Source of the DNA: an uncultured Actinomycetota bacterium
Lineage (GTDB): Bacteria > Actinomycetota > Actinomycetes > Mycobacteriales > SCTD01
NCBI GenBank assembly: GCA_963760125.1
Contig: CAVXBV010000002.1
Coordinates: forward strand, 109,244 to 173,243
Direction: 5' to 3'
Length of the DNA stretch: 64,000 nucleotides
The translations under genes were made by a program, and so were the position numbers. Positions 4,775 to 47,068 of the stretch are shown piece by piece. Within the stretch, counting starts at the first letter, position 1. The number at the start of each line of letters is the position of its first letter. The notes below the pieces were generated by a model, which searched no databases, was not told the DNA's origin, and saw only the letters and a list, made by a program, of their open reading frames with translations.

Positions 4775-4873
4775 CTTCCCCGCACGAAGCGGGACGGAGT
4801 TGGCACCTGGCTCGTCGTGAGCTGGTTGCCGGGGCGTCATCGGGCCGTGTCCCTGGTGCCCCTCGGGATGAAG
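4769..4873 (-). promoter_or_regulatory. SAM-I (S-box) riboswitch, translational OFF type
   Basis: The minus-strand RNA reads CUUCAUC-CCGAG-GGGCACCAGGGACACGGCCCGAUGACGCCCC-GGCAACCAGC...GCCAGGUGCCAA-CUCCGUCCCGCUUCGUGCGGGGAA-GAUGAGG. The conserved blocks AGGGA, GGCCCGAUGA, CCCGGCAACC and GGUGCCAA.UCC are all present. The P1 3' strand covers the AUG and SD. Confidence 0.8.
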
Positions 4874-4909
4874 TCGTGCTGTTCAGTTGTGGGGACCGAC
4901 GTTACCGGA

Positions 4910-7657: not shown

Positions 7658-8764
7658 TCAGGCGTAGTCGCGGGTCACGATCACGGTCATGCCGCTGGTG
7701 GGGATACCACTGAAGCGTGGGCGGACCCGCGGGATCCCGAACTGCTTGGCGAACCGCTGCGCCGACGCCTGCTGGCCCGGCGGGTAGTACACGGTGGTCT
7801 GCGGGATCGTGCCTCCGCTGTAGTTGCCGGTGGTGCGCACCGGCCAGCCGCCAGCACGGAACCGCGCGGCGGACCGGTCGGCCAAGCCACTGACCCGGCT
7901 GTTGTTGAGGACCGACACGGGGACGACGGGGGCAGCCGGCCCCGTCGTCGCGGGCGGGGCACTCGGCGAGGCGGGCGGCGCCACCGGTGGAGCGACGGGC
8001 GTCGTGGCTGGCGGGCTCGGCAGCACGGGCGTTGCGGTCGGGGGCTCGGCCGACGGCGCGGCGGTCGGCGGCCCGGACACCGCAGCCGTCGGCGGGCTGG
8101 CCACCACAGGGTTGCCCTGCGGGTCGTCGTGGGTGAACACGAGGAGCGCGCCGATGCCCAGCGCGACGCCGGCCACGGCGAGCCCCGCACCCGCCAGCGC
8201 CCGCAGGGGGCCTACCGGGGGCGGCTCGGGGACCGGGCGGTCGCGCAGGGTCCCTTCGGCAGCGGGGGGCTCCCGTGTCACCTGCGCCTCGGACTCCCGC
8301 ACGACAGGCTCCGGCACGACGGGCACCGGCACGCCGGCCGCCACGGGCACAGGAGGAACATAGGCCCGCACGGGCTCAGCGGGCGGCGGTTCCGGATCGG
8401 CGAGCGGGTCGGCGGCGAGGTCGTCAGGCAGCCAGCCACGGTCCAGCGGGGTCGCGACGTCAGGGGCGGGGACGGCAGGCGGGGGAACGACAGGAGCGGC
8501 GGGCGGGTCCGGGAGCAGCACCTGCGGCTCGACGAGTTCCGGGACGTCGTCCACGGGCACCTCGGCCGGCACTCCCTCGACGGGCAGGCCCGGCTGCTCG
8601 GTGGTCGCGGCCTCGCGTTGCGCCGACGCTTGGGCGCGCCACCACGCGTCCGACCCCGTGTCGTAGACCGGCTCGGCCTCGGGTCCGGGCAGCGCGGTGG
8701 ACGCGGGGTCAGCGGGATCGACCTCAGGGAAGTCCCAGTCGTCGCCGTCAGTCGGGCCGGTCAC
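7658..8764 (-). CDS. LytR_C (LytR cell-envelope-related C-terminal) domain protein, Pro-rich, membrane anchored
   Basis: C-terminus reads VSVLNNSRVSGLADRSAARFRAGGW...TVYYPPGQQASAQRFAKQFG...MTVIVTRDYA. There is one TM helix and long P/A-rich linkers. Confidence 0.8.
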   Translation of the reverse strand: MTGPTDGDDWDFPEVDPADPASTALPGPEAEPVYDTGSDAWWRAQASAQREAATTEQPGLPVEGVPAEVPVDDVPELVEPQVLLPDPPAAPVVPPPAVPAPDVATPLDRGWLPDDLAADPLADPEPPPAEPVRAYVPPVPVAAGVPVPVVPEPVVRESEAQVTREPPAAEGTLRDRPVPEPPPVGPLRALAGAGLAVAGVALGIGALLVFTHDDPQGNPVVASPPTAAVSGPPTAAPSAEPPTATPVLPSPPATTPVAPPVAPPASPSAPPATTGPAAPVVPVSVLNNSRVSGLADRSAARFRAGGWPVRTTGNYSGGTIPQTTVYYPPGQQASAQRFAKQFGIPRVRPRFSGIPTSGMTVIVTRDYA

Positions 8765-8797
8765 GCGCGCGTCACGAGAAGAGCTTCACGAAGAGAG

Positions 8798-9091
8798 CTA
8801 GGCGTCCATGCCGAGGCGGCGCGCCGACCGGTTGCGCTGGCGCGTGGTGCGCAGGCGCCGCAGGCGCTTCACCAGCATGGGATCAGCGACGAGCGCCTCG
8901 GGCCGGTCGATGAGGGCGTTGAGCACCTGGTAGTACCGGGTGGCGCTCAGGTCGAACAGGTCCTTGATCGCCTGCTCCTTGGCCCCGGCGTACTTCCACC
9001 ATTGGCGCTCGAAGGCCAGGACCTCCAGGTCGCGCTCGGTGAGCTCACCGCTGGCCTCGGGGACCACGGAGAGACTGGTCGCGCTGTCCAT
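8798..9091 (-). CDS. DUF3263 domain protein
   Basis: ELTERDLEVLAFERQWWKYAGAKEQAIKDLFDLSATRYYQVLNALIDRPEAL. Start is at the internal ATG 9091, with a GGAGGT SD. Confidence 0.8.
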   Translation of the reverse strand: MDSATSLSVVPEASGELTERDLEVLAFERQWWKYAGAKEQAIKDLFDLSATRYYQVLNALIDRPEALVADPMLVKRLRRLRTTRQRNRSARRLGMDA

Positions 9092-23795: not shown

Positions 23796-24875
23796 GTGGC
23801 GAACACTGACGACCTGCTGCGCACGACGCTGTTCCAGGTGGCCCCCGGGACCGCCCTGCGCGACGGCCTCGAACGCATCCTGCGCGGCAACACCGGCGCC
23901 CTGATCGTGCTCGGCTTCGACAAGCTCGTCGCGTCGGTCTGCACCGGCGGCTTCGACCTCGACGTCGACTTCTCCGCGACGCGGCTGCGCGAGCTGTCCA
24001 AGATGGACGGCGCGCTGGTGATGACCGGCGACCTGTCCAAGATCATCAAGGCCGGCGTGCAGCTCGTCCCGGACTCCTCGATCGAGACGGCGGAGACCGG
24101 CACCCGGCACCGCACGGCCGAGCGGGTGGCCAAGCAGACCGGCTGCCCCGTCATCAGCGTGAGCCAGTCCATGCGGATCATCGCGCTGTACGTCGACGGC
24201 CGCCGCTACGTCCTGGACGACAGCGCCGCGATCCTGTCCCGCGCGAACCAGGCACTGGCCACGCTCGAGCGGTACAAGCTGCGCCTCGACGAGGTCGCCG
24301 GAACGCTGTCGGCGCTGGAGATCGAGGACCTCGTCACCGTCCGCGACGCGATGGCTGTCTCGCAGCGGCTGGAGATGGTGCGCCGGATCGCCACCGAGAT
24401 CGAGGGGTACGTCGTCGAGCTCGGCACCGACGGGCGCCTGCTGTCGCTGCAGCTCGACGAGCTGATGGCCGGCGTGGAGGGCGAGCGCGAGCTCATCGTC
24501 CGCGACTACCTCGTCAGCGGCTCGGGCCGCAAGACCCGCACGGTCGCGGACGCGGTCACCGACCTCGACCTGCTCCCCGGCAACGAGCTGCTCGACCTGG
24601 CCTCCATCGCCCGGGCGGTCGGCTACGCCGCGGGTGCGGATGCGCTCGACGCCGCCGTGTCGCCTCGCGGCTTCCGGCTGCTGGCCAAGGTGCCGCGGCT
24701 GCCCAACCCGATCATCGAGCGGCTCATCGAGCACTTCGGGGGGCTGCAGAAGCTGCTGGCCGCCGGTATCGACGACCTGCAGATGGTCGAGGGCGTCGGC
24801 GAGGCTCGGGCCCGGTCGGTCCGCGAGGGCCTGTCCCGCTTGGCCGAGTCGAGCATCCTCGAGCGCTACGTCTAG
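23796..24875 (+). CDS. disA: DNA integrity scanning protein DisA (diadenylate cyclase)
   Basis: GTALRDGLERILRGNTGALIVLG...DGALVM...TGTRHRTAERVAKQTG (DAC domain) plus a C-terminal HhH. GTG 23796 follows GGGAGGAG. This is the tail of the 22413..24875 ORF frame. Confidence 0.93.
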   Translation: MANTDDLLRTTLFQVAPGTALRDGLERILRGNTGALIVLGFDKLVASVCTGGFDLDVDFSATRLRELSKMDGALVMTGDLSKIIKAGVQLVPDSSIETAETGTRHRTAERVAKQTGCPVISVSQSMRIIALYVDGRRYVLDDSAAILSRANQALATLERYKLRLDEVAGTLSALEIEDLVTVRDAMAVSQRLEMVRRIATEIEGYVVELGTDGRLLSLQLDELMAGVEGERELIVRDYLVSGSGRKTRTVADAVTDLDLLPGNELLDLASIARAVGYAAGADALDAAVSPRGFRLLAKVPRLPNPIIERLIEHFGGLQKLLAAGIDDLQMVEGVGEARARSVREGLSRLAESSILERYV

Positions 24876-24895
24876 CAGCGTCCCCCGCGGGCGGC

Positions 24896-25066
24896 TCAGC
24901 GCGCGCGCTTGGCCCGTCGCCGCTTGGCGACGGTGAACAGCACCGAGGCGACGAGCAGCAGCGCCGCCACCGCGAACAGCGCCACGACCGCCTTCACGAT
25001 CGCGACCACGACGAGGAGCACGGCCAGGACGAACAGCAGGTCGCTGGTCCGCGCCAACCGCTTCAT
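24896..25066 (-). CDS. 56-aa two-TM membrane peptide, last gene of the Che-like operon
   Basis: MKRLARTSDLLFVLAVLLVVVAIVKAVVALFAVAALLLVASVLFTVAKRRRAKRAR. It is below the ORF-track size cutoff. Its ATG overlaps the cheW stop codon (ATGA). Confidence 0.55.
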   Translation of the reverse strand: MKRLARTSDLLFVLAVLLVVVAIVKAVVALFAVAALLLVASVLFTVAKRRRAKRAR

Positions 25067-25479
25067 GCCTGCACCGCGGAGACCCGGGCACTGGCCACCA
25101 TGGCCGCCAGGTCCACGAGGAAGACCGATCCGGCGGTTCCGCGCAGCACCTCCACGACGTACGACGGAAGCTCGTCGGCCGAGCCCCCGGCGGCGCTGAG
25201 CTCCCCCTCGTCCACCACCGATCGCACCTTGTCGACGGCGACCCCGATGAAGGTGTCGCCGCTCTCCATGACCATCACGTCCCCGCGGTCACCGACCGCG
25301 CCCGAGCGCAGGTCCAGCACCGGGAGCGCCGTGCCGCGCAGGTCGAGCACCCCGGCGAGCGGCGGCGTCATGCCGGGCAGGTCGTCCAGGTTCTCCAGAC
25401 GCACGACCTCACGGATCGACGACAGGGGCGTGGCGTACTCCCTGGCCCCCAGGGCGAACGTCACCAGGCTTGCGCTCAT
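25063..25479 (-). CDS. cheW: CheW-like coupling protein
   Basis: LVTFALGAREYATPLSSIREVVRL...LAGVLDLRGTALPVLDLR...FIGVAVDKVRSVV. ATGA overlap with cheR. Confidence 0.85.
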   Translation of the reverse strand: MSASLVTFALGAREYATPLSSIREVVRLENLDDLPGMTPPLAGVLDLRGTALPVLDLRSGAVGDRGDVMVMESGDTFIGVAVDKVRSVVDEGELSAAGGSADELPSYVVEVLRGTAGSVFLVDLAAMVASARVSAVQA

Positions 25480-26876
25480 CGGACCTCCTGCTCGGGCGCC
25501 CGCGCCAGCGAGCGGCACAGCTGCACCAGCTCCCGCACGCTACGCCCTCCGAGCTCCTCGGCGGTCGCATCACCAGGCTGCAGCCCCAGGGTGTCCGCAG
25601 CAGCGGCGTACGCCGCGGACGACGGCCGGCCCAGTCGGGCGAGCACACCGGCGAGCAGGAACTGCGCGAAGCCCCTGGTCGGCTCGAGGTAGACCGCCTT
25701 GCGCAGGTCGACCAGTGCGTCCTCGTCGCGCCCGGCCGAGACCAGCGCCAGCGCCCGCAGGTAGTAGGCGTCGGCCCGCCCCGGATCGATCGCGGTCGCG
25801 TCGCCGGCGGCCTGGGCCGCCTGCTCGTAGAGCCCTGCCGCGAGGGACGCTCGCGCCTTGACCAGCAGGTGGTCGGGACTGGTCACCCGCCCCTCGTCCG
25901 TGCGCCCCTCGCCCCGACGCGCCTCGTCCCGACGGGGCTGGACCCGCCGTTCCGGCGCCGGCGGCGGAGGTCCCTCGTCCTCGGTACGGCGGTCGGGCAG
26001 AATCGTGCGGCGCTCAGGGGCCTGGTCCGGGGCGGGGTCGAGACGGCGGTAGACGAACGTGGCGCTGTCGCCGGTGCCCAGCGACACCAGGCGGAAGTCC
26101 TCGCTGATCTGCCAGAGCGTCTCGGCGTGACCGAGGAACAGGTAGCCCCCGTCGCGCAGGCTGTGGTGCAGCCGCATCATCAGCGCCCGGGTCGTCTCGC
26201 GGGCGAAGTAGATCGTGACGTTGCGGCACAGGACGAGGTCGATGCGCTCGCTGGGCGGGAACGGGACCGCCTCGGTGACCAGGTTGTGGTGCCGGAACTC
26301 CACCAGGTCCCGTACCTCCTGCCGCACCTCCACGCCGCCCTCCGGGGTGGGCACGAAGAAGCGGCCGAGCTGCTCCGGCGTCGCGAGCGCCACCGCGCGG
26401 GCGCCGTACCTGCCGACCTTGGCCGCCGCCAGCGCGCGGGTGGAGACGTCGGTGGCGAGCACCTTGACGTCCCAGCCGTCGGTGCTCGGCAGCAGCTCGC
26501 GCAGCGCCATCGCCAGGCCGTAGGGCTCTTCGCCCGTGGAGCACCCGGCGCTCCAGATGCGCAGCCGCTTGCCGTTGGCCTCCGCGTGCCGGAGCAGCTC
26601 CGGCAGCACGTGCGTGCGCAGCACCCGGGTCTGCGGGGGGTTGCGGAAGAAGTGGGTCTCCTGGATGGTGACCTCGTTGAGCAGGGCCTGGCGCTCCCCG
26701 ACGTCGGAGAGCAGACCGAGGTAGGTCGCGACGTCCGGTGCCCCGGTCGCACGCAGCCGCTCTCCCACTGAGTACGACATCGACTGCAGCCGGCTGTCGT
26801 CGAACACCAGCCCGGCGGCCTGCGACAGCAGCGAGCGCAGCGCCTCGAACTCCGGCCGCGCGAGCTGCAGGCTCAT
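25476..26876 (-). CDS. cheR: CheR-type protein-glutamate O-methyltransferase with C-terminal TPR domain
   Basis: ETHFFRNP, RIWSAGCSTGEEPYGLAMAL, DLVLCRNVTIYF, then a charged linker and TPR repeats (ADAYYLRALALVSAGRDEDALVDLRKAVYLEP). Confidence 0.9.
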   Translation of the reverse strand: MSLQLARPEFEALRSLLSQAAGLVFDDSRLQSMSYSVGERLRATGAPDVATYLGLLSDVGERQALLNEVTIQETHFFRNPPQTRVLRTHVLPELLRHAEANGKRLRIWSAGCSTGEEPYGLAMALRELLPSTDGWDVKVLATDVSTRALAAAKVGRYGARAVALATPEQLGRFFVPTPEGGVEVRQEVRDLVEFRHHNLVTEAVPFPPSERIDLVLCRNVTIYFARETTRALMMRLHHSLRDGGYLFLGHAETLWQISEDFRLVSLGTGDSATFVYRRLDPAPDQAPERRTILPDRRTEDEGPPPPAPERRVQPRRDEARRGEGRTDEGRVTSPDHLLVKARASLAAGLYEQAAQAAGDATAIDPGRADAYYLRALALVSAGRDEDALVDLRKAVYLEPTRGFAQFLLAGVLARLGRPSSAAYAAAADTLGLQPGDATAEELGGRSVRELVQLCRSLARAPEQEVR

Positions 26877-28015
26877 GTCCGACCGACCAGCGCCAGCAGG
26901 GCCCCCGCGATCTGCGTGATCGGCAGCTGCTGCCCCACGGCGCCCGTCACCCAGGCGACCTGCGGCATGCCGTAGACCGTGCTCGTGAGCTCGTCCTGGC
27001 CAAGGGTCGCCGCGCCGCGGTCCCGCATCGCCTTGAGGCCGGCGGCACCGTCGCGTCCCATGCCGGTCAGGAGCACACCGACGGCGTCCGGCCCGAGGGC
27101 GCTCGCGATGCTGGAGAAGCACTGGTCGATGCCCGGCACGTGGAACTGACCGGCCTCCGGCGGGACGCAGACGGTCCGCAGCCGGGCGTCCTGGACGAGC
27201 AGGTTCTGACCGCTCGGCGCGATCGTCACGGTGCCGGGCTCGAGCCGTCTCCCGGACGCCCCGACGACGACCGGCAGGGGCACCAGGTCGTTGAGCCAGC
27301 TGGCCAGGCCGGGGATGAAGCCCTCGGCCATGTGCTGGACGACGAGCACGGCCTGGGTGAGGTCGGCGGGCAGTCCCCCCAACACGGTCTGCAGGGCCTG
27401 AGGTCCCCCTGTCGAGGCGCCGATCGCCAGCAGCTTCACCCCTGGGTGCACCGGGTCCTGGACCGACGGAGGGCCGGCCGGCTGGGGCACCGCCGCGGAG
27501 TCCTGGTCCACCACGGGGGACGGAGCCACGGCTCGGTCGGTGTCGTGCACCCGGCCCCGCGGGTGGGTGATGACTCGGACCCGGGCGGCGACCCGGATGC
27601 GGCGTCGCAGCTGGTCGGCGTAGTCGTCGAGCGTCCCCACGTGGTCGGGGCTCGGCTTGGCCATGACGTCGACGGCGCCGGCAGCGAGAGCCTCGAGGGC
27701 GTTGTCGCTCTCCGTGCCGGTCACGTGGGCGCTGAAGACGACGATCGGTCTCGGGCTGCCGGCCATGATCCGCTCGATCGCCTCGAGCCCCCCCATGACC
27801 GGGAGGTCGAGGTCCATCAGCACGACGGTCGGCTGGAGGCGTCGGACGAGGGCCACGCCCTCCTTGCCGTTGCGCGCTTCGCCCACCACGGTCATCGAAG
27901 GGTCGGAGTCGATGACACCGCGCAGGAACCGGCGCTGCACGGGAGAGTCGTCCACGACGACCACCGAGGTCGGGGGGACGGGGACCACGGTCTCCAGCGA
28001 GACGGACTGCGTCAT
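26873..28015 (-). CDS. cheB: CheB-type response regulator / protein-glutamate methylesterase
   Basis: REC domain (VVVVDDSP...VVLMDLDLPVMGG) plus esterase triad context (IGASTGGPQAL, VVQHMAEGF, LLTGMGRDGAAGL). Confidence 0.92.
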   Translation of the reverse strand: MTQSVSLETVVPVPPTSVVVVDDSPVQRRFLRGVIDSDPSMTVVGEARNGKEGVALVRRLQPTVVLMDLDLPVMGGLEAIERIMAGSPRPIVVFSAHVTGTESDNALEALAAGAVDVMAKPSPDHVGTLDDYADQLRRRIRVAARVRVITHPRGRVHDTDRAVAPSPVVDQDSAAVPQPAGPPSVQDPVHPGVKLLAIGASTGGPQALQTVLGGLPADLTQAVLVVQHMAEGFIPGLASWLNDLVPLPVVVGASGRRLEPGTVTIAPSGQNLLVQDARLRTVCVPPEAGQFHVPGIDQCFSSIASALGPDAVGVLLTGMGRDGAAGLKAMRDRGAATLGQDELTSTVYGMPQVAWVTGAVGQQLPITQIAGALLALVGRT

Positions 28016-28302
28016 GCGGGGTGGTCCAGCAGTGCGTGCAAGAGGTCGACCAGCGGGGCGAGGGTCGCGGGTCGGAGGTCGGCCTCGGCGGCGCGCGCCG
28101 ACCGGCAGATCTCGACCTCCCCGACCACCCAGGCGCTGCTGGCGAGCGTGTGCACGTCCCGTCGGACGTCCTCGAACGCGCCCCCGTCGACGAGCCGGGG
28201 CAGCCGGGTGCGGACCTCCCCGAGGAAGGCCTCACGCAGGTCGCGGGCGAGGTCGGTGTCGGTGAGGCTGGGGCGCTGCACCTGCACCCCCACGACCCTC
28301 AC
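28012..28302 (-). CDS. Stand-alone Hpt-like (histidine phosphotransfer) domain protein, 96 aa
   Basis: LREAFLGEVRTRLPRLVDGGAFEDVRRDVHTLASSAWVVGEVEI resembles the Hpt helix pair with the H-x-L-(K)-(G)-S-A site. ATGA overlap with cheB. The exact GTG start is uncertain. Confidence 0.55.
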   Translation of the reverse strand: MRVVGVQVQRPSLTDTDLARDLREAFLGEVRTRLPRLVDGGAFEDVRRDVHTLASSAWVVGEVEICRSARAAEADLRPATLAPLVDLLHALLDHPA

Positions 28303-28372
28303 GGCCCAGAACTGCTCCAGGCGCCTGGTGTGGTGTCGTCCCGAACCTGCCCGTGCTTGAGCGACGGACCGG

Positions 28373-28990
28373 TCAGGAACGCAACCGGAAGACCGCTCCG
28401 TCCACCTTCAGCGTCCCGACCCGGCCGGCCACCCGGTAGGTCCCTGCCTTCGCGGTCTCCTTGGCTCCCTCGCAGCCCGGCCGGGACCGCACCCCCGGCC
28501 AGGTCTTGACGACGGCCTGGGTCGCTCCGGGGGCCAGTGTCGTGAGCGCCTTGGCTGTCGAGGGGTTGCAGTCGTCGCTGGCCCAGATCCGGTCGCTGCC
28601 GCTGGTCACGAGCAGCTCGACCACACCCGCCCCCAGGTCGCGCCGGCACGCGGTCGCCGAGGTGTTCTTGACGACCATGGTGATCTTCGGGGTGGCGCCG
28701 AGGGCGTAGGTCTCGCTGTCGGTGGTGGTCGTCAGCGACAGCGCGCCGTCCGGGCACAGGGCCGCGGTCGCCGGCGGGGCCGGGGCGGCCGAGGGGGAGG
28801 GCGCCGACGCGGCGGACGGGGACACCGAGGGCGTGGCAGCGGGGGTCGGGGTGCCGGAGGTCGGAGTCGGCGATCCGCCGCCGGTGCACGACCGGGCCAC
28901 CAGCAGGAGCACGAGCACCCCCACCAGCAGGGCGGCCCGACGCCACCAGTACGTCTGGGCCGGCAACGGGCCCACCGGGTGCATGACCAT
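28373..28990 (-). CDS. Membrane-anchored secreted beta-rich protein with 4 Cys (position and look of M. tuberculosis Rv3587c-type protein)
   Basis: N-terminal TM helix, S/P/T/A linker, then C...C / C...C pairs (LCPDGALSL...NTSATACRRDLG...SDDCNP...RPGCEG). Confidence 0.55.
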   Translation of the reverse strand: MVMHPVGPLPAQTYWWRRAALLVGVLVLLLVARSCTGGGSPTPTSGTPTPAATPSVSPSAASAPSPSAAPAPPATAALCPDGALSLTTTTDSETYALGATPKITMVVKNTSATACRRDLGAGVVELLVTSGSDRIWASDDCNPSTAKALTTLAPGATQAVVKTWPGVRSRPGCEGAKETAKAGTYRVAGRVGTLKVDGAVFRLRS

Positions 28991-29042: not shown

Positions 29043-29966
29043 ATGTCACCACGCGCGTCCCCCCGAGAGCCGTCCCGAGAGCCGTCCCCAGGCCCGTCTC
29101 CAGAGCCCACCTGGCTGCCGACCCTGGTCGGCTGGTACGCCCAGCACGCCCGGGACCTGCCGTGGCGCTCGGCCAGGACGACGCCGTATCAGGTGCTGGT
29201 CTCCGAGGTGATGCTCCAGCAGACGCCCGTGGCGCGCGTCGTCCCGGCGTACCTCGCCTGGCTCGAGCGCTGGCCGACCGCGGCCGCGCTGGCGCAGGCG
29301 CCCTCGGGGGAGGCGGTGCGCCAGTGGGGACGGCTGGGCTACCCGCGGCGCGCGCTGCGGCTGCACGCCGCGTGCACCGACGTCCTCACGCGGTACGGCG
29401 GGGAGCTCCCCGTCACGGTCGCGGAGCTGCTCACCCTGCCGGGCGTCGGCGACTACACCGCGCGGGCCGTGGCGGCCTTCGCCCTGGGGCAGCGGGTGCC
29501 CGTGGTCGACACCAACGTGCGCCGGGTCGTCGCCCGGCTGGTCGAAGGGGCCGCCGACGCGCCGGTCACCCGGCGCGACCTCGCCCTCGTGGAAGCACTG
29601 CTTCCGCCGGCCCCCCGGGACGCCGCGACGGCTTCGATCGCCCTCATGGAGCTCGGAGCGTTGGTCTGCACGGCCAGGTCACCGCGGTGCTCGAGCTGTC
29701 CGGTCCTCGACGCGTGTGCGTGGCAGCGCGCGGGCGCGCCGGCGCTCGACGCCCCCGTCCGGCGACCCCAGGGCTACGCCGGCACCGATCGCCAGGTCCG
29801 CGGCCGGCTGCTCGGGGTGCTGCGGGACAGCACGGACCCGGTGCCGGCTGACGTCCTGGCGCAGGTGGGCGGTGATCCGGTGCAGCGGGCGCGGGCGCTC
29901 GACGGCCTGGTGGCCGACGGCCTGGTGGATCCGCGGCCGGACGGGACCTACGCGCTGCCGGGGTGA
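29043..29966 (+). CDS. mutY: A/G-specific adenine DNA glycosylase MutY
   Basis: LPWRSARTTPYQVLVSEVMLQQT, the HhH-GPD motif LPGVGDYTARAV and the 4Fe-4S loop CTARSPRCSSCPVLDAC. Confidence 0.92.
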   Translation: MSPRASPREPSREPSPGPSPEPTWLPTLVGWYAQHARDLPWRSARTTPYQVLVSEVMLQQTPVARVVPAYLAWLERWPTAAALAQAPSGEAVRQWGRLGYPRRALRLHAACTDVLTRYGGELPVTVAELLTLPGVGDYTARAVAAFALGQRVPVVDTNVRRVVARLVEGAADAPVTRRDLALVEALLPPAPRDAATASIALMELGALVCTARSPRCSSCPVLDACAWQRAGAPALDAPVRRPQGYAGTDRQVRGRLLGVLRDSTDPVPADVLAQVGGDPVQRARALDGLVADGLVDPRPDGTYALPG

Positions 29967-30319
29967 GCGAGCATCGTGCGGATCGTCGCGACCAGGTCGA
30001 CCAGGTGGTCCTTGCGGAGGTAGCCGTCGATCGACGGCTCGCGGACGGCCGACTCGGCCAGGTCCAACGCGGTGCACAGCAGGACGACGACGGAGGGGGC
30101 GGCCGCCTTCATCGTGGGAGCCGCCTGCAGCCCGGTCATCGCGCCCTCGAGCTGGTTGTCCAGCAGCACCAGGTCGGGCTGCTCGGCGCGCACCAGGGCA
30201 ATCCCGTCTTCGGCGCTGACGGCGCTCCCGACCAGCTCGAGGTCGGGCTCGGTGGACAGCAAGATCTCCACGACGGCGCGGATCATCGCGTCGTCCTCCA
30301 CCAGCACCACACGGGTCAC
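29948..30319 (-). CDS. Stand-alone receiver (CheY-like) response regulator, 123 aa
   Basis: VVLVEDD...DLVLLDNQL...VVLLCTA...GYLRKD (the DD / D / T / K set). GTG overlaps the kinase stop codon (GTGA). The 3' end overlaps the mutY 3' end by 19 nt. Confidence 0.85.
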   Translation of the reverse strand: MTRVVLVEDDAMIRAVVEILLSTEPDLELVGSAVSAEDGIALVRAEQPDLVLLDNQLEGAMTGLQAAPTMKAAAPSVVVLLCTALDLAESAVREPSIDGYLRKDHLVDLVATIRTMLAHPGSA

Positions 30320-31887
30320 TCGGGCACCGTAGCCGGGAACGTCACCCAGAAGGTCGCGCCCTCGCCGACCCGTGAGCTCACGCCCAGCGTGCCGCCGTGG
30401 GCCACCACGAGTCGCTTCACGATCGACAGGCCGAGGCCGAACCCGGGGACCTGCCGAGCCCGTGAGCTGTCGGTGCGGGTCCACCGCTCGAACAACGCCG
30501 CCTGCTCGGCCTCGGCGATGCCCGGTCCCTCGTCCCGCACGTCGAGGCGCACCTGGCCACCCTCGGCGCGCACGCTCACCACCACGGGGCGATCCGGCGC
30601 CCCGTGCTTGACGGCGTTGCCCACCAGGTTGTCCAGGACCTCGCGCACCATCTCCGGGTCCCCCGCGAGCACCTGCGGACTGCCCGCCTCGCGCACGATG
30701 TCCACGGCGTCCTTGCCGGCCACCGCCTCGACGTCGCGTCGGACGGCCTCCAGCAAGCCGTCGATCTCCACCACCTGCCAGCGGGGCAGCACACCGGCCA
30801 GCGCGTGGCGCTCGTCGACCAGCAGGCGCTCCGCGAACGACTCGATGCGCGCGAAGGAGTGCGTGATCCCTTCCAGCGCCGCGCGGATCTGCTCGGGCGT
30901 CAGCTGGTCGAGCTTGCCGTGCAGGAGCTGGGCGTAGCCCTTGCCCGCGCCCAGCGGCGTCCTGATGTCGTGACGGGCCGTGTCGACAATCTCTTGCCGG
31001 AGCAGCTCCTCCTCGCGGGCGCGCTCTGCCTGCTGCGCCCAGCGGACCGCCGCCCCGACGTGCGCCGCGAGGTCGACCAGCAGCTGCTCGTCGACCTCGT
31101 CGAACGCCCGCTCGCCCGGGCTGTTCGCCACGGCCAGCTCACCGAGGACCTGCGTACCCCCCAGGATCGGCACGGCGAGCAGCGGCCCGATCGGCGGGTG
31201 GACCCCCGGCAGTCCGACACCTGCCGGGTGGCCCCGGATGTCGTCGAGGCGCGCCGGGACCCGCGACGTGACCGGCACGGCCAGCAGACCGACCATGCGG
31301 GGGTTGCGCTGCGGAAAAAGGTGTCGCGGGGCGTCGTACACGAAGTGGCTGATCTCGGTCGGCGACCCGGGCCGCAGCAGGACGAGGGCGCTGTACGCCG
31401 CACCGGTGAGCTGCTTGGCCTCGGTCGCGAGCACCTGGAGGACGGAGGCGACGGACGGGGGCTCGCCGAGCAGCGACCGGCCGAGCTCGGCGATGCGCCG
31501 CAGGCCCTCGGCGTGGCGGACGGCCGTCGTGACGTCGCGCAGGATGATCGCCTGCAGCGGACCGATGTCGCGGCGCAGCACATCGACGACCCCCAGCGGT
31601 CGGAGGTCGAGCCGGGTCATCCCCTCGGTGGGCAGGGCCAGCAGCGCGTCGAGGTCGACGATCTCGCCGACCGCCGCGCCCTCGACGCCGAACATCAGAT
31701 TCGCCGCGGGGTTGGTGACCAGCACCTGCCCGTCAGCAAGAACGACGACCGCGTCCGGGGTGGCCTCGAACAGCTCCCCGATCGCCCCCGCCATGATCGG
31801 GCTCGGCGCCTCCGGTGCCGCGGGGGTCGGGGCTACCGGAGGGGACGTGCTGTCGTCCCCGGGAGCCATGGAGGGGACGCTACCCAC
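30316..31887 (-). CDS. Cytoplasmic PAS-GAF sensor histidine kinase (HisKA + HATPase_c)
   Basis: PAS (ATPDAVVVLADGQVLVTNPAANLMFG), GAF (...GELAVANSPGERAFDEVDEQLL), H-box ARHDIRTPL, N/G boxes NLVGNAVKH and GFGLGLSIV. No TM helices. Start is GTG 31887 or ATG 31869. Confidence 0.88.
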   Translation of the reverse strand: MGSVPSMAPGDDSTSPPVAPTPAAPEAPSPIMAGAIGELFEATPDAVVVLADGQVLVTNPAANLMFGVEGAAVGEIVDLDALLALPTEGMTRLDLRPLGVVDVLRRDIGPLQAIILRDVTTAVRHAEGLRRIAELGRSLLGEPPSVASVLQVLATEAKQLTGAAYSALVLLRPGSPTEISHFVYDAPRHLFPQRNPRMVGLLAVPVTSRVPARLDDIRGHPAGVGLPGVHPPIGPLLAVPILGGTQVLGELAVANSPGERAFDEVDEQLLVDLAAHVGAAVRWAQQAERAREEELLRQEIVDTARHDIRTPLGAGKGYAQLLHGKLDQLTPEQIRAALEGITHSFARIESFAERLLVDERHALAGVLPRWQVVEIDGLLEAVRRDVEAVAGKDAVDIVREAGSPQVLAGDPEMVREVLDNLVGNAVKHGAPDRPVVVSVRAEGGQVRLDVRDEGPGIAEAEQAALFERWTRTDSSRARQVPGFGLGLSIVKRLVVAHGGTLGVSSRVGEGATFWVTFPATVPE

Positions 31888-35164: not shown

Positions 35165-37477
35165 TCAAGAATGCGCGGAAGTCCGCACTTCCTGCTTTTC
35201 CCACCGCCGGGTGAGCTCCTCAGGGGGGAGCGCCGCGGCGTACAGGAAGCCCTGCCCGAGGCGGCAGCCCAGCTCGCGCAGCCGGGCAGCCTGGGCCGGC
35301 AGCTCGATGCCCTCGGCGACGACGTCGAGGTCGAGCGCCTCCGCCAGGGTCATGACCGCCGCGGCCAGGGCCCCCTGCCGTGCCCCGAGGTGGAGGTCCT
35401 GCACGAAGCACCGGTCGATCTTGACGATGTCGACCGGGATCTTCTGCAGGTAGCCCAGGGCGGAGTAGCCCGTGCCGAAGTCGTCGAGGGCGATCCGGAC
35501 CCCGAGCTCGCGGAGGGCGGCCAGGCGCGGGCCGATGCTCACCACGTCCCCCATGAGGACCGTCTCGGTGATCTCGAGGACGAGGCACGAGGGATCGAGG
35601 CCGGTGTCACGCAGGGCCTCCCGGACGACGTCGACCAGGTCTCCGTCGGCCAGCTGCACGGCGGAGAGGTTGACCGAGAGGGTGAGCCGGCCGGTGAGGT
35701 TCCACGTGGCGGCGTGCGCGCAGGCCGTGCGCAGCACCTGCCGACCCAGGTGACCGACGAGCCCGCTCTCCTCAGCCAGCGGGACGAACACGCCGGGCGA
35801 GACCGCCACACCGTCCTTGGTCCACCGGGCCAGGGCCTCCACGCCGGTCAGCCGACCGGTCCCGAGGTCCACGATCGGCTGGAACCACGGCCGGATGTCA
35901 CCGGCGAGCAGCGCCTGGCGCAGGTCGGCCTCCAGCGCGACCCGGGCGAGCAGCTCGTCGCGCATCGAGGGCACGAACACGCAGAGCTGGTCCTTGCCGG
36001 CGTCCTTGGCGGCGTACATCGCGACGTCGGCGTTGCGCAGCAGCGCCTCGGGGGTGTCGCCCGGGGCGGAGAGCACCAGTCCGACGCTGCCGGTGAGCGC
36101 GAGGGTGCGGGCCCCCAGATCGACCGGGACCGTGAGGGTCTGCAGGATCTGGTGACCGAGCTGCCAGGCGTCGCGCTCGGTCACCGGTCCCGGGAGGAGG
36201 AAGGCGAACTCGTCGCCCCCCAGGCGGGCCGGGAGGACGCCGGCCGGGAGGCCGTGGGACAGCCGGTGGCCGAGGACTTCCAGCAGGCGGTCTCCGGCGT
36301 CGTGACCGAGGCTGTCGTTGACCTGCTTGAAGCCGTCGAGGTCCAGCAGCGCCACGACGACCGGGCCCGCCAGGAGCTCGCTGGCCATGCGGTCGAACAA
36401 CCGGGCGCGGTTGGGCAGGCCGGTCAGCGAGTCCGTCCACGCCTGCGCCTGCAGCCGCTCCGTCGTCCGCGAGAGCTCCCGGGTGCGCTCGGCGACCGTG
36501 ACCTCCAGCCCGCGGGACAGCCGGCTGTTCTCGGCGAGCGCGAGTCCTTGACGCAGCAGCACCGACGCGAAGATCACGAAGCCGAGCCCACGGCTGACGT
36601 CGTCGGTCCCCTTCTCGCGGAGCGCGTCGTTGATCGCCAGCGCCGCCAGCAGGACCAGCGGCACGAACGGGAGGGCGGCACGCCAACCGGTCGGCGGCCG
36701 CTCGGGGACGTCGACCCGGGCCGCACCCCGGTCGAGGTGGGCACCGAGCGCCAGGAAGACGAACCCCACACCCCAGGCAGCATCGATCGGGTTGCCCGGC
36801 TGCCAGCTGCCGCTCTGGGCCAGCAGCCCGTAGACAGTGTGGCCGACCGCACCGGACGCCAGGCACGCCGCGACCCACGCGAGCGGGCGGTCGGTGGCGC
36901 TCCGGGCGCGCAGCCCCACGAGCACCAGCAGGGTCAGCACGACGACGTCGAGGGCCGGGTACGCCAGGCCGAGGAGCTGAGCCAGGCCGGGGGCACCCGC
37001 GGCGGCGTACGCGTCGCCGAGGGCGAGCCGCCAGGAGACCGCGAGCAGGGAGGCGCCGACGAGGATGCCGTCGGCGACGAGGCGCAGGAGCCCGAACGCG
37101 GGCCGGGGAGCGCTGGGGTGCATGAGCAGGGCGGCGAGCAGGAACGGGACGCAGGCGACGTACCCGACGTCCGGGAGGCCGGGGAACGGGACGGCGGTCC
37201 CGACGACGAGCTCGTACCAGCACCAGGCGACCTGGCCGAGGGCCCACGTGCCGGCGAAGGCAGCGAACAGCGCCCAGCTGCTCCGCGCCCGGCCCTGGCA
37301 GCGGCGCGCGGCCCCCAGACACAGGCCCGAGGCCACGAGCGGGGCGATCAGGTTGCCGAGGTCATCGACCCAGATCGCCGTACGGCTCCCGGTGTGGAAG
37401 GTGACGACCACGAGGTAGGTCACGGACCAGAGGAGGGCAGCGAGCAGCACGCGACGGCGACCCGGGACACGCTGCAT
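35165..37477 (-). CDS. Membrane-bound GGDEF-EAL protein (diguanylate cyclase/phosphodiesterase) with a ~330-aa polytopic N-terminal domain
   Basis: About 10 TM helices, then RLGGDEFAFLL and the EAL core (LVLEITETVL, ALDDFGTGYSALGYL, VKIDRCFV). Start is at the internal ATG 37477, downstream of the lysS stop codon. Confidence 0.88.
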   Translation of the reverse strand: MQRVPGRRRVLLAALLWSVTYLVVVTFHTGSRTAIWVDDLGNLIAPLVASGLCLGAARRCQGRARSSWALFAAFAGTWALGQVAWCWYELVVGTAVPFPGLPDVGYVACVPFLLAALLMHPSAPRPAFGLLRLVADGILVGASLLAVSWRLALGDAYAAAGAPGLAQLLGLAYPALDVVVLTLLVLVGLRARSATDRPLAWVAACLASGAVGHTVYGLLAQSGSWQPGNPIDAAWGVGFVFLALGAHLDRGAARVDVPERPPTGWRAALPFVPLVLLAALAINDALREKGTDDVSRGLGFVIFASVLLRQGLALAENSRLSRGLEVTVAERTRELSRTTERLQAQAWTDSLTGLPNRARLFDRMASELLAGPVVVALLDLDGFKQVNDSLGHDAGDRLLEVLGHRLSHGLPAGVLPARLGGDEFAFLLPGPVTERDAWQLGHQILQTLTVPVDLGARTLALTGSVGLVLSAPGDTPEALLRNADVAMYAAKDAGKDQLCVFVPSMRDELLARVALEADLRQALLAGDIRPWFQPIVDLGTGRLTGVEALARWTKDGVAVSPGVFVPLAEESGLVGHLGRQVLRTACAHAATWNLTGRLTLSVNLSAVQLADGDLVDVVREALRDTGLDPSCLVLEITETVLMGDVVSIGPRLAALRELGVRIALDDFGTGYSALGYLQKIPVDIVKIDRCFVQDLHLGARQGALAAAVMTLAEALDLDVVAEGIELPAQAARLRELGCRLGQGFLYAAALPPEELTRRWEKQEVRTSAHS

Positions 37478-37514
37478 GCCTTCCCATCGGCAGGTCGTGG
37501 TCGTTCGTGAAGCC

Positions 37515-39029
37515 TCAGCCGGGGCGTAGGAGGGGGAACAGCACGACCTCACGGGCGGGCAGCCCTGTGAGCAGCATGACGAGGCGGTCCAGGCCCATGC
37601 CCTGTCCGCCCATGGGGGGAGCGCCGTGCTCCAGAGCGCGCAGGAAGTCCTCGTCGAGCTGCATCGCCTCGGGATCGCCGGCCGCCGCCTTGAGCGACTG
37701 CGCGGTGAGCCGACGCCGCTGCTCGACCGGGTCGACGAGCTCGGAGTAGCCCGTCGCCAGCTCGACACCGCCGATGACGAGGTCCCACGCCTCGGCCAAC
37801 CGCGGGTCGTCGCGGTGGCCACGAGCCAGCGGACGGGCGTCGACGGGGTAGTCCTTGACGAAGGTGGGCTGGATCAGCGTGTGCTCGACCAGCTTCTCGA
37901 ACAGCTCGAGGGCGATCTCCCCCGCCGACCAGCCAGGCTGCAACGCGACGTCGTGCGCGTCCGCGAGGGTGGTGAGGGTCCCCGCGTCGGTACCGGCGTC
38001 GACCGTCGTGCCGGTGGCCTCGCTGACGAGCTCGAAGAGCGTCGCGGTCCGCCACGGCTGCTCGAGGTCGACCTGACCCTCGCACACGACGGTCCGTCCG
38101 ACGACGCGCGCGCAGGCCAGGATCATCTCGCGCGTCAGGTCCGCGACGGTGTCGTAGTCGCCGTACGCCTCGTAGAACTCGAGCATCGTGAACTCGGGCA
38201 GATGGGTGGCGTCCATGCCCTCGTTGCGGAAGTTCTTGCCGATCTCGAAGACCCGGTCGAGTCCGCCGACGACCGCACGCTTGAGGTAGAGCTCGAGGGC
38301 GATGCGCAGCGTCATGTCGAGGTCGAGCGCGTTGAGGTGGGTGCGGAACGGCCGGGCCGCGGCGCCGCCGTGCATCATCTGCAGCGTGGGCGTCTCGATC
38401 TCGATGTAGTCGCCGTCCTGCAGCACCTGCCGGACCGTCGCGATGATGCGCGACCGGTCGCGGAACAGCTGCCGGCTGTCGGCGTTCACGGCGAGGTCGA
38501 CGTAGCGCTGCCTCACGCGCGCCTCAGGGTCGACGAGGCCCTTGTGCTTGTCGGGCAGCGGACGCAACGCCTTGCTGGTGAGCAGCCAGTCGGTCGCGAG
38601 GACGCTGAGCTCGCCGCGCTTGCTGGTGATGACCTCGCCGGTGATGCCGACGTGGTCGCCGAGGTCGACGTCGGACTTCCAGGCCGCGAGCCGCTCCTCC
38701 CCGACGCCGGCGAGGCTGATCATCACCTGCAGGGTGGCCTCACCCTCGGTGAGGGTGGCGAAGCAGAGCTTGCCGCCGGTCCGGCTGAGCAGGACCCGCC
38801 CGGTGATGCCGACCGTCTCACCGGTCTGGGTGTCCTCGGGAAGCCCCTGGTGCGTGGCGCGCACGTCCGCAAGGCTCGTGGTCCGGGGGTAGCCGAGGGC
38901 GTACGGCGGGGTGCCCGCCGCGACCAGCCGGTCGTACTTCTCGCGCCGGATCCGCACCTGCTCCGGCAGTTCGGCCTCGAAGGCCTGCTGGGGGCTGGTG
39001 TCCGCGCTCTGGTCGGGGGTCTGGCTCAC
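37515..39029 (-). CDS. lysS: Lysine--tRNA ligase (class II)
   Basis: OB-fold N-domain and class II motifs (FRNEGMDATHLPEFTMLE, ...GGQGMGLDRLVMLL). Confidence 0.95.
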   Translation of the reverse strand: MSQTPDQSADTSPQQAFEAELPEQVRIRREKYDRLVAAGTPPYALGYPRTTSLADVRATHQGLPEDTQTGETVGITGRVLLSRTGGKLCFATLTEGEATLQVMISLAGVGEERLAAWKSDVDLGDHVGITGEVITSKRGELSVLATDWLLTSKALRPLPDKHKGLVDPEARVRQRYVDLAVNADSRQLFRDRSRIIATVRQVLQDGDYIEIETPTLQMMHGGAAARPFRTHLNALDLDMTLRIALELYLKRAVVGGLDRVFEIGKNFRNEGMDATHLPEFTMLEFYEAYGDYDTVADLTREMILACARVVGRTVVCEGQVDLEQPWRTATLFELVSEATGTTVDAGTDAGTLTTLADAHDVALQPGWSAGEIALELFEKLVEHTLIQPTFVKDYPVDARPLARGHRDDPRLAEAWDLVIGGVELATGYSELVDPVEQRRRLTAQSLKAAAGDPEAMQLDEDFLRALEHGAPPMGGQGMGLDRLVMLLTGLPAREVVLFPLLRPG

Positions 39030-45097: not shown

Positions 45098-45995
45098 GCT
45101 CGCACCCGTGGCTGGTCGGGCGTGGGGGGAGGCGTGGCAGGACGCGCTCTACGGCTCCTCGGGCTTCTTCCGGCGGGAGGACCCGGCCGATCACTTCCGC
45201 ACCAACGCGGCCGTGCCGCTGTTCGCCGAGGCGGTCCGGGCGCTGGCCGAGCGGGTGGACGAGGCGCTCGGCTTCCCGGACCCGTTCGACGTGGTCGATG
45301 TCGGTGCGGGACGGGGCGGACTGCTGCGCGCCCTGGGCGAGGTGCCGGCCCGCTGGCGTCTCACCGGGGTCGACGTGGCCGACGCTGACGTGCCGTTCAC
45401 CTGGCGGCACCAGATCCCCGCAGTGACAGGCCTTCTGCTGGCCAACGAGTGGCTCGACGCGATCCCGCTGGACGTGCTGGAGGACGGCCGGCTGGTCTTG
45501 GTGGACCAGGAGGGCACCGAGTCCCTCGGTGCTCGGTCGACGTCCGGGTGGGCCGCGACGTGGTGGCCGGCGGGCGGTCGCGTCGAGGTCGGAGCGCCCC
45601 GGGACCTCGCTTGGGCCGCTGCCGTCGCGCGTCTGCGGCAGGGGGCTGCCGTGGCGATCGACTACGACCACGACCTGTCGGCCCGCAGGCCGACGCTCAC
45701 GGGCTACCTCCACGGCCGGCAGGTCCCCCCGGTGCCGGACGGGTCGTGCGACCTCACCGCGCACGTCGCCCTCGACTCCTGCAGGGCGGCCGGCGGCGGC
45801 GTGGTGATCCGGCAACGAGCGGCCCTGGCAGCACTCGGGATCAGCGCGCGCCTCCCCTCGCCCAGCGATCCGTCGTACGCCGTGGCGCTGGAGCGGGCGT
45901 CGCAGGCGCGCGAGCTGCTGGACCCCGACGCCCTGGGGGGCTTCGGCTGGCTGGTCCACGGCGTCGGCGTGGACCTTGGTTGGATGACCGGATGA
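45096..45995 (+). CDS. MidA / NDUFAF7-family (DUF185) SAM-dependent methyltransferase
   Basis: ALYGSSGFF...HFRT..., [15 protein letters not shown] and [17 protein letters not shown] are family hallmarks. Start is ATG 45096 or GTG 45108. Confidence 0.75.
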
Positions 45996-47068
45996 GGACG
46001 GTGATCGCCGGCATCGGCGCCGCGGCGCTCCCGCGCTCCGACCTCATGCTCGAGCTCGGCCCGCACCACCCGTCCACCCACGGCTCGCTGCGCCTGCGGC
46101 TCGACCTGGACGGCGACGTCGTGGTGGCCGCGGAGCCGCTCATCGGTGCCCTGCACCGGGGGGCGGAGAAGCTCTTCGAGGCGCGCGACTACCGCCAGGT
46201 GCTCGTGCTCGCCAACCGGCACGACTGGCTCGCGGCGTTCAACAACGAGGTCGGCGTCGCGCTGGCCGTCGAGCACCTGCTGGGCATGGAGGTCCCGGCG
46301 CGCGCGACGTGGCTGCGCACCACCTTGTGCGAGCTGAACCGGGTGCTGTCCCACCTGATGTTCCTCGGCCACCTGGACGTCGAGTTCGTCCGGCTGCGGG
46401 AGCGGCTGCAGCACGTGATGGAGTCAGCCACGGGCGGTCGCCTCCACTACGTCGCCACGCGCATCGGCGGGCTGCTCGAGGACGTGCCCGAGGGGTGGGT
46501 CGGCGACGTCGCCTCCGCGGTGGCGGCGGTGCGTGCGGGCCTGCCCTCGCCGGACCTCTCGCCCTGCACCGGGCTGGGGGTGCTGTCCCGCGACGACGCG
46601 CTGGCGTACGGCGTGAGCGGGCCGGTGGGTCGCGGCTCCGGCCTGGACCTGGACCTGCGGCGTGACGACCCCTACCTGTCCTACGCGGCGCTGGACGTTG
46701 CCGTGGTGACGCGCACCGACGGCGATGCCGCGGCGCGGTTCGCGTGCCTGCTCGAGCAGGTGCACGTCTCGCTCGACCTGGTGCTTGCCTGCGTGGACGC
46801 GCTGCCGTCCGGGCCGGTCAACGTCAAGCTGCCCAAGAACCTCCGGGCGCCCGAGGGCTCGACGTACGCGTGGACGGAGAACCCGTCCGGAATCGCCGGC
46901 TACCTGCTGGTCTCCCGTGGGGCAGTGACGCCGTGGCGCCTGGCGATGCGGACCGCGTCGTTCAACAACGTGTCAGCGCTGCCGGCCGTCCTCCCAGGGA
47001 CGCGCCTGCAGGACGTCGCGACGGTGCTGGCGTCGTTCTTCTTCGTGGTCGGCGACATCGACCGCTAG
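45992..47068 (+). CDS. Orphan NuoD / NDUFS2-like protein (complex I 49-kDa subunit family), shortened (358 aa)
   Basis: [29 protein letters not shown], ...[15 protein letters not shown]..., and C-terminal [13 protein letters not shown] overlap with the methyltransferase stop codon. No other nuo genes are nearby. Confidence 0.8.

Follow-up and report, generated by a model that had tools for sequence, protein, structure and literature searches.

A conserved cheB-cheR-cheW operon beside disA in uncultured actinobacteria: more probably half of a split chemosensory pathway than an orphan module

Chemosensory pathways of the alternative cellular function (ACF) type, which do not serve motility, are common and mostly uncharacterised, and FrzF of Myxococcus xanthus is a studied example of a CheR methyltransferase fused to tetratricopeptide repeats (TPR). 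Such CheR-TPR fusions are found predominantly in ACF clusters (PMC3447774). Actinomycetia mostly carry systems of the F5 class, and a few have ones of the ACF class (PMC10746217). Acidothermus cellulolyticus 11B is listed with an ACF set consisting of CheB (WP_011719060), CheR (WP_011719061) and CheW (WP_011719062), together with a CheA (WP_011720708) and a second CheW (WP_011720706) that lie far from this triple, and it also has a separate contiguous F5 set (PMC10746217 Table S3). Because accessions in this genome rise by one per gene, as can be seen from the flagellar table of the same file, the three ACF proteins are encoded side by side in the order CheB-CheR-CheW (B-R-W), and the ACF CheA is some 1,650 genes away. 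Here we compare with these systems a five-gene operon at positions 24896-28302 of a 64-kb stretch of DNA (hereafter the window) from an uncultured Actinomycetota bacterium (contig CAVXBV010000002.1), which encodes an Hpt protein, CheB, CheR, CheW and a small membrane protein.

The original prediction for this stretch, made from the sequence alone, saw in the operon a self-contained orphan: a protein-methylation module with no receptor, no kinase and an as yet unnamed substrate. We favour a different reading, to which we give a probability of about 0.55, namely that the operon is the methylation and coupling half of a split ACF pathway whose receptor and kinase are encoded elsewhere in the genome; "orphan" here most likely means "split". 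For the clade as a whole this is the best account because of the ACF census of A. cellulolyticus, the finding of methyl-accepting chemotaxis proteins (MCPs) in Acidothermaceae, and the prevalence of CheR-TPR in ACF clusters. The genes of the operon are as follows.

28012..28302, minus strand: stand-alone Hpt protein of 96 amino acids with a GTG start; its stop overlaps the cheB start (ATGA)
26873..28015, minus strand: CheB, a receiver (REC) plus protein-glutamate methylesterase domain, 380 amino acids (Pfam, NCBIfam, motifs)
25476..26876, minus strand: CheR methyltransferase with C-terminal TPR, 466 amino acids (Pfam, C-terminal profile)
25063..25479, minus strand: CheW coupling protein, 138 amino acids (Pfam, motif)
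24896..25066, minus strand: small membrane protein of 56 amino acids; its start overlaps the cheW stop (ATGA)

The five open reading frames (ORFs) are chained by four 4-nt ATGA junctions (28012-28015, 26873-26876, 25476-25479 and 25063-25066), exactly where the original prediction had placed them. Its domain calls, including the Hpt-like and CheW-like ones, are borne out by Pfam scores above the cut-offs, and every catalytic motif that it named (VVLMDLD, GASTGG, VVQHM, GMGRDG and RIWSAGCSTGEEPYG) was found in the sequence. CheB scores 70 bits with Response_reg and 183 bits with CheB_methylest, and 322 bits with NCBIfam NF001965 (cut-off 293). It has a receiver with the phospho-acceptor Asp and a methylesterase domain with an intact Ser-His-Asp triad; among 71 orthologues, conservation reaches 95% or more for this acceptor Asp (in MDLDLP) and for GASTGGP, VVQHMA and LTGMGRDGA. 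CheR (CheR_N 30 bits, CheR 188 bits) combines the all-alpha N-terminal domain with an S-adenosylmethionine (SAM)-dependent methyltransferase domain, and its motifs TIQETHFFRN, WSAGCSTGEE and CRNVTIYF are conserved at the same level (at least 95%, ~70 orthologues). CheW is complete, as had been claimed, with a single CheW-like domain (69 bits against a cut-off of 23.5) and the canonical motif LPGxxxPxxGxxxLRGxxLPVxDLR conserved in 73 orthologues; its core, too, reaches the level of at least 95% in ~70 orthologues. In sequence searches of the PDB, the nearest solved relatives of the three proteins are CheB structures (E = 1e-50), CheR structures (E = 3e-42) and CheW structures (E = 2e-5), respectively.

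The C-terminus of CheR deserves separate comment. Single-sequence Pfam matches to TPR fall short of the cut-offs there, and a profile of 27 orthologous CheR C-termini matches TPR proteins in the PDB over ~85 residues with E values of 1e-17 to 1e-50, the range being 1e-9 to 1e-50 for OGT, consensus-TPR and MamA chains. On the strength of this profile the CheR-TPR fusion, first proposed from the single sequence, can be taken as real.

The operon is also maintained by selection. With the ratio of non-synonymous to synonymous substitution (dN/dS) estimated by the Nei-Gojobori method for closely related pairs, cheB, cheR and cheW give 0.05-0.25 in most pairs, cheW alone gives 0.05-0.09 in four of five pairs and 0.37 in the fifth, and hpt gives 0.19-0.36. 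All five ORFs are conserved in related genomes and four of them have dN/dS well below 1, hence we regard all five as real genes; these four are under purifying selection and, judged by their sequences, functional. It is for these reasons highly improbable that the operon is what is left, in decay and without function, of a chemotaxis system since lost. Repeated loss of flagellar and chemotaxis systems is indeed reported for actinobacteria (PMC10746217), and within the clade the Hpt and the small membrane protein occur only in patches, but the dN/dS values lie far below 1, the catalytic and phospho-acceptor residues are conserved in ~70 orthologues, the frames and their translational coupling are intact, and the module is kept at one locus across 80 species.

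This last point comes from a CheR scan with one genome per species, which gave 115 relatives; the best 80 were fetched, and all synteny counts in this paper rest on those. All 80 are metagenome-assembled genomes (MAGs) labelled Frankiales, Mycobacteriales, Frankiaceae or Acidothermaceae, with 44-80% CheR identity. In tblastn searches of these loci the order mutY(-), rv3587(+), [hpt], cheB, cheR, cheW(+), disA(-), radA(-) is found essentially wherever the contigs reach. An arrangement shared so widely marks the module as an old, vertically inherited fixture of the clade and therefore not a peculiarity of a single genome. The original prediction had proposed profiling how often the cluster occurs beside disA, and the core module is at that spot across the fetched loci. 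Since the Hpt and the 56-amino-acid protein are patchy among the relatives, the conserved core is cheB-cheR-cheW only, and the other two genes appear from the comparison to be lineage-specific additions. Literature searches found no paper describing this locus. Some loci carry additional genes between cheW and disA (those scanned were L037, L041, L059, L061, L069, L070, L074 and L076); these insertions were considered as hidden receptors or kinases and rejected, as the ten largest inserted ORFs scanned were unrelated, with GH92, Na/H exchanger, DUF4331, aminotransferase, subtilase and LMF1 proteins among those found.

The partners of such a module are not encoded beside it in the window. Window ORFs were called by third-position GC (GC3), and a Pfam scan of all GC3-supported ORFs in the 64 kb found no MCPsignal domain, no H-kinase_dim or CheA-type kinase and no second CheW, in agreement with the earlier statement that the window holds neither CheA nor MCP. 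The only receiver in the window besides CheB is a 123-amino-acid REC protein at 29948-30319. When the window was searched by tblastn with sequences of E. coli Tsr and CheA and of T. maritima CheA, only the HATPase of a PAS-GAF histidine kinase was matched; the Tsr query had a positive control, as it found the MCP in four Acidothermaceae loci, and the CheA queries had none. Across the 80 related loci there is no CheA kinase within 10 kb of the module. A local canonical chemosensory core (MCP, CheW, CheA and CheY) is thus missing its CheA and its MCP near the module, and the operon, in which CheB is the only receiver, encodes neither a multidomain response regulator as output nor a hybrid CheA, either of which would mark a cluster of the ACF class (Wuichet & Zhulin classification).

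Acidothermaceae suggest where these partners may lie. Their loci, including that of an Acidothermus sp. MAG, have exactly B-R-W at mutY, without a CheA or CheX in the vicinity, and by elimination of the F5 cluster this triple is presumably the catalogued ACF triple. An MCP lies ~3-4 kb beyond radA in four Acidothermaceae loci only, among the 80, and a second MCP of the same family adjoins holB. In one Acidothermaceae MAG such a second MCP (P0170) is on contig JAICYF010000052 and the module locus (L069) on JAICYF010000053; this MAG (JAICYF01) is the one case in which MCP or CheA matches could be paired with the module by accession prefix, and no such pairing was obtained among Frankiales-type MAGs. 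The operon is therefore poorly described as a self-contained orphan, being an ancient clade fixture with an MCP on another contig of a module-bearing MAG, nor does the picture of a receptor-less and kinase-less module hold in A. cellulolyticus, where the ACF CheA and second CheW are encoded far away. The leaning of the original prediction towards a function outside motility stands: ACF pathways are where CheR-TPR typically occurs (PMC3447774), and it is under ACF that Table S3 of PMC10746217 enters the Acidothermus counterpart.

The MCP family to which these receptors belong (L062:17691-19169; P0121-P0190, in contexts L081-L084, L087 and L088) has features of its own. It is actinobacterial, and its proteins have a single membrane helix at the N-terminus and a short signalling domain, to which ~150-190 strand-rich amino acids are added at the C-terminus. 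The genes are always solitary, with housekeeping neighbours (holB/topA or radA), and are never part of a che cluster. In the actinobacterial MAG JBKJZO01 an H-NOX (HNOB) protein is encoded ~3 kb from such an orphan MCP (L082:6502-7092).

The same evidence bears on whether the operon could be the adaptation half of a flagellar F5-type chemotaxis system, placed away from cheA and mcp, i.e. a split motility system. In flagellated Actinomycetia F5 systems prevail, A. cellulolyticus possesses MCPs and a set of chemotaxis genes besides its flagellar genes, and MCPs co-occur with the module in Acidothermaceae. However, the F5 system of A. cellulolyticus has its own contiguous CheA-CheW...CheB-CheR-CheX while the B-R-W triple is classed as ACF, a TPR on CheR is typical of ACF pathways, and neither the window nor the 80 related flanks contain flagellar, cheY, cheX or cheZ genes. 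We consider this explanation improbable. The original prediction had named a CheA of the same class elsewhere in the genome as the sign of a split motility system; such a CheA does exist in a relative, but it belongs to an ACF pathway and not to motility.

Several observations weigh against the split ACF pathway itself. No CheA, MCP or second CheW was found in the window, nor in any locus of the Frankiales type up to 10 kb away from the module, and both of the slots that hold an MCP in Acidothermaceae are without one in the window, where CsbD-like ORFs adjoin holB and copper-chaperone genes lie beyond radA. The triple of Table S3 is matched to the mutY/disA locus by gene order, consecutive accessions and elimination, and not by sequence match. 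In addition, the partners of the window module are assumed by analogy with Acidothermaceae proteins that are only 44-54% identical, and since Acidothermaceae have no Hpt, the wiring may differ where it matters.

Another class of system would require neither CheA nor a classical MCP. In a MAC2-like arrangement, CheB and CheR would serve a methyl-accepting coiled-coil receptor-kinase encoded elsewhere. By definition, a MAC2 system joins a MAC protein to a CheB and a CheR that are separate proteins, and a rare class of CheW co-occurs with MAC systems, of which none has been characterised (bioRxiv 10.1101/2022.05.07.491037). Separate CheB and CheR, a CheW, and the lack of CheA or MCP close to the module would all suit this explanation, which we nevertheless find quite improbable: nothing speaks positively for it, the window contains no MAC-type protein, the neighbouring kinase is PAS-GAF-HisKA-HATPase only and lacks a coiled coil like that of MCPs, and the catalogue entry for the Acidothermus counterpart is an ACF set that includes a CheA.

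The first gene of the operon adds a component that is absent from the Acidothermaceae loci. The Hpt protein scores 30.5 bits with Pfam Hpt (cut-off 24.6), and it has both the four-helix bundle (AlphaFold2 model, pLDDT 90.6) and the phospho-acceptor His in an HxLKG-type motif; all of 44 orthologues keep this His51, which lies in AHTL(A/G)SSA. When 5.8 billion proteins were searched by profile, the matches were only stand-alone proteins of 88-137 amino acids, from metagenomes and Frankiales/Mycobacteriales MAGs. HMMER with the Hpt profile against 1.84 billion representatives gave ~85 stand-alone clusters and then long proteins with three to eight Hpt stretches, which by Pfam are hybrid CheAs with several Hpt domains, as in ChpA/WspE (Hpt x2-5, H-kinase_dim, HATPase_c, CheW, REC). 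As its nearest non-orthologous relatives are the Hpt domains of hybrid CheAs, the protein can be considered a chemosensory P1-type unit and not a generic relay Hpt; at the level of sequence, its P1-like affinity is clear. The structural neighbours of the model found by Foldseek are Hpt proteins, with R. sphaeroides CheA3-P1 at the top, although all have E >=0.2, are non-significant and do not discriminate CheA-P1 from other Hpt types. The gene is missing in Acidothermaceae and in several other sublineages, where the gap before cheB is 120-280 bp.

The high-GC hybrid CheA P0326 and its family were considered as partners of the module and rejected, as they belong to complete Wsp-like clusters, which already encode a CheB and a CheR. 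Two such clusters, on MAG contigs of 75-76% GC (L085:7592-16141 and L086:7744-14234), encode a dCache-HAMP MCP, CheW, an Hpt-HATPase-CheW-REC kinase, CheB and CheR-TPR; a second CheW and a REC-GGDEF protein are further encoded in L085, whose cheB and cheR look fragmented. The CheB of L086 is ~40% and the CheR of L085 ~36% identical to the window proteins.

A phosphodonor for the Hpt might also be sought in the neighbourhood of the operon, where two further genes are relevant.

30316..31887, minus strand: PAS-GAF-HisKA-HATPase histidine kinase (Pfam), candidate for an upstream phosphodonor
29948..30319, minus strand: CheY-like single-domain receiver of 123 amino acids (Response_reg, 52 bits), candidate for a relay step

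The two genes would allow a CheA-independent, four-step His-Asp-His-Asp relay from the PAS-GAF kinase to the CheY-like REC protein, the Hpt and finally the CheB receiver, with CheR-TPR and CheB setting the methylation of a substrate possibly outside a classical CheA array. This proposal is unlikely in our view, and the evidence is divided. The kinase and receiver genes are translationally coupled by a GTGA overlap, with the GTG start of the receiver on the stop of the kinase, and they lie ~1.6 kb (two genes) upstream of hpt on the strand of the module. The receiver keeps the DD...D...T...K acceptor set intact, as read from the sequence, and the Hpt is in turn translationally coupled to CheB. 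Neither the 64 kb nor the Frankiales-type flanks offer a CheA or MCP in place of the relay. Where the contig extends 2.5 kb or more upstream of mutY, the kinase is commoner with the Hpt, being present in 13/21 Hpt-positive against 2/17 Hpt-negative loci, an association that is suggestive but confounded by phylogeny. On the other side, eight Hpt-positive loci have no kinase, and the receiver is present in nine of the 13 kinase-bearing Hpt-positive loci, leaving four with a kinase and no receiver. The kinase begins 24 nt after the clpC1 stop, and mutY and rv3587 intervene before the module, so the linkage may be plain synteny. Furthermore, the closest kin of the Hpt are CheA P1-type domains, the presence of a canonical, strongly selected CheW points to an array of the receptor/CheA type, and, because the Hpt-less B-R-W core is equally conserved, that core does not depend on the relay. 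We know of no CheB that acts as the terminal receiver of an Hpt phosphorelay.

A broader form of the same idea is that in Hpt-bearing Frankiales the dependence on CheA has been lost, and that two-component input through a P1-derived Hpt sets a CheR-TPR/CheB switch. This is slightly less likely still. The substrate of such a CheA-free switch, held by CheW and perhaps by the small membrane protein, could be a non-canonical receptor or another coiled-coil protein.

The last gene of the operon encodes a micro-protein with two hydrophobic helices, basic ends and a conserved SD motif, and it has no match to a Pfam family. A homologous ORF of 56-72 amino acids was found in ~18 of the fetched loci, mostly those of the closest relatives, with the 4-nt cheW overlap in each, and the homologues share a basic-SD-helix-turn-helix-RRR layout. 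Where the small protein is missing, cheW reaches as far as the disA stop or runs past it. In many relatives (L019, L027-L029, L031, L048, L049, L053, L054, L058 and L075) the two convergent genes share 4-10 nt at their stop codons, so that the ends of the two transcripts must overlap.

Returning to the split ACF pathway, its assembly can be envisaged as follows. An ancestor of the Frankiales/Acidothermales clade would have placed the sub-cluster between mutY/rv3587 and disA, and the clade kept it. CheR-TPR would methylate glutamates of one or more MCP-type receptors and CheB would demethylate them, while CheW would help to build the receptor-kinase array; the receptor or receptors, a CheA-type kinase and the second CheW would be encoded elsewhere, as in Acidothermus cellulolyticus. 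In the sublineage of the window, the stand-alone P1-like Hpt, co-translated with CheB, would hand a phosphoryl group to the CheB receiver, either as the detached P1 of a distant kinase (cf. Rhodobacter sphaeroides CheA3/CheA4) or as the end of a relay, and the two-helix micro-protein, itself coupled to cheW, may serve as a tether or modulator of the complex. In this scheme we infer four things: that the genome encodes partners at another place, what phosphorylates the Hpt, what the pathway's output is and what the micro-protein does.

The setting of the operon is one of core housekeeping genes, as the original prediction had noted from the flanking pairs. The window has a GC content of ~72-73% and an actinobacterial composition, and the GC content of the module is that of its surroundings. 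On one side are radA and disA; on the other are the Rv3587c-like gene, mutY, the histidine kinase and REC genes, clpC1 and lsr2. The remaining genes are groEL, thrC behind a SAM riboswitch, gdh, cysS, ispD, carD, lysS, coaX, nadCB, panDC, folKBP, ftsH, tilS, dacB, ppa and prfC. A scan of 24700-28600 for sigma-70 promoters and intrinsic terminators gave no match and is uninformative at 73% GC.

Other features of the window may be recorded here. A large membrane protein with GGDEF and EAL domains is encoded between lsr2 and lysS (35165-37873, minus strand), which places a cyclic di-GMP enzyme in the same conserved region as the cyclic di-AMP synthase DisA. The SAM riboswitch (4768-4874, minus strand; Rfam RF00162, 71 bits) lies directly upstream of a pyridoxal phosphate-dependent, threonine-synthase-like gene at ~3500-4760. 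A lone NuoD-like ORF (Complex1_49kDa) is found in the folate/pantothenate region (45629-47068, plus strand) with no other nuo genes nearby, and ~880 bp at 7915-8798 contain no GC3-supported ORF and no Rfam match at the gathering threshold.

The locus establishes CheR-TPR, CheB and CheW as a stable, selected feature of a large and mostly uncultured clade of soil and freshwater actinobacteria, in a DNA-repair and housekeeping neighbourhood. Should the partners be encoded elsewhere, nature would here provide a clean case of a chemosensory system in two parts, and a caution that 64 kb are too narrow a view for the label "orphan". Should they be absent, CheB and CheR would be at work without a CheA array around them, of which to our knowledge there is so far no demonstration. 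Acidothermus cellulolyticus can be cultivated and offers an experimental entry point.

The closest described counterpart is the A. cellulolyticus 11B ACF set, which shares with the window the B-R-W order, the lack of a CheA nearby and, in Acidothermaceae MAGs, the same mutY-side locus. In Acidothermus the CheR likewise has a C-terminal TPR, and the NCBI name of one orthologue is "tetratricopeptide repeat protein". The Acidothermaceae differ in that their proteins are 44-54% identical to those of the window and in that their loci have neither an Hpt nor an Rv3587c-like neighbour nor the micro-protein; the A. cellulolyticus set is known from its genes alone, and its accessions are equated with the locus by inference. 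The CheR-TPR family (Munoz-Martinez et al. 2012, PMC3447774) has the same succession of a CheR domain and a short TPR of ~2-3 repeats and the same ACF association, but its clusters usually encode a multidomain response regulator, which is absent from this operon. The Wsp system of Pseudomonas aeruginosa, and the Wsp-like clusters L085 and L086, resemble the proposed pathway in serving functions other than motility and in having a CheR with a TPR-like extension, a CheB and two CheW, and the Hpt domains of Wsp-type hybrid CheA-REC kinases are the closest kin of the window Hpt. Wsp is, however, one contiguous cluster (MCP, CheW, CheR, CheW, CheA-REC, CheB, REC-GGDEF), of which the window has only CheB, CheR and CheW plus the Hpt; the receptor, the hybrid CheA-REC kinase and the REC-GGDEF protein are not near the window module, and its Hpt is a separate protein of 96 amino acids.

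In R. sphaeroides CheA3/CheA4 (PMC6829392) a P1/Hpt unit is likewise set apart from the kinase core and phosphorylates chemotaxis receivers. CheA3 differs in also having a P5 and a phosphatase region and in lying inside a che cluster, its Foldseek match to the window Hpt is non-significant (E >=0.2), and the window Hpt has no kinase core identified for it. Phosphorelays with an Hpt (Spo0F-Spo0B-Spo0A, ShkA-ShpA-TacA, HptB) find a parallel in the kinase, receiver, Hpt and receiver-effector within 4 kb, but the linkage to kinase and REC is not kept in all Hpt-bearing loci. Compared with what has been described, three features of the locus are new: a B-R-W sub-cluster that in Actinobacteria keeps a stable, clade-wide place between mutY/rv3587 and disA, the occurrence of CheR-TPR where this fusion was reported to be nearly absent from the group, and, in one sublineage, a detached P1-like Hpt coupled to CheB together with a two-helix micro-protein coupled to CheW.

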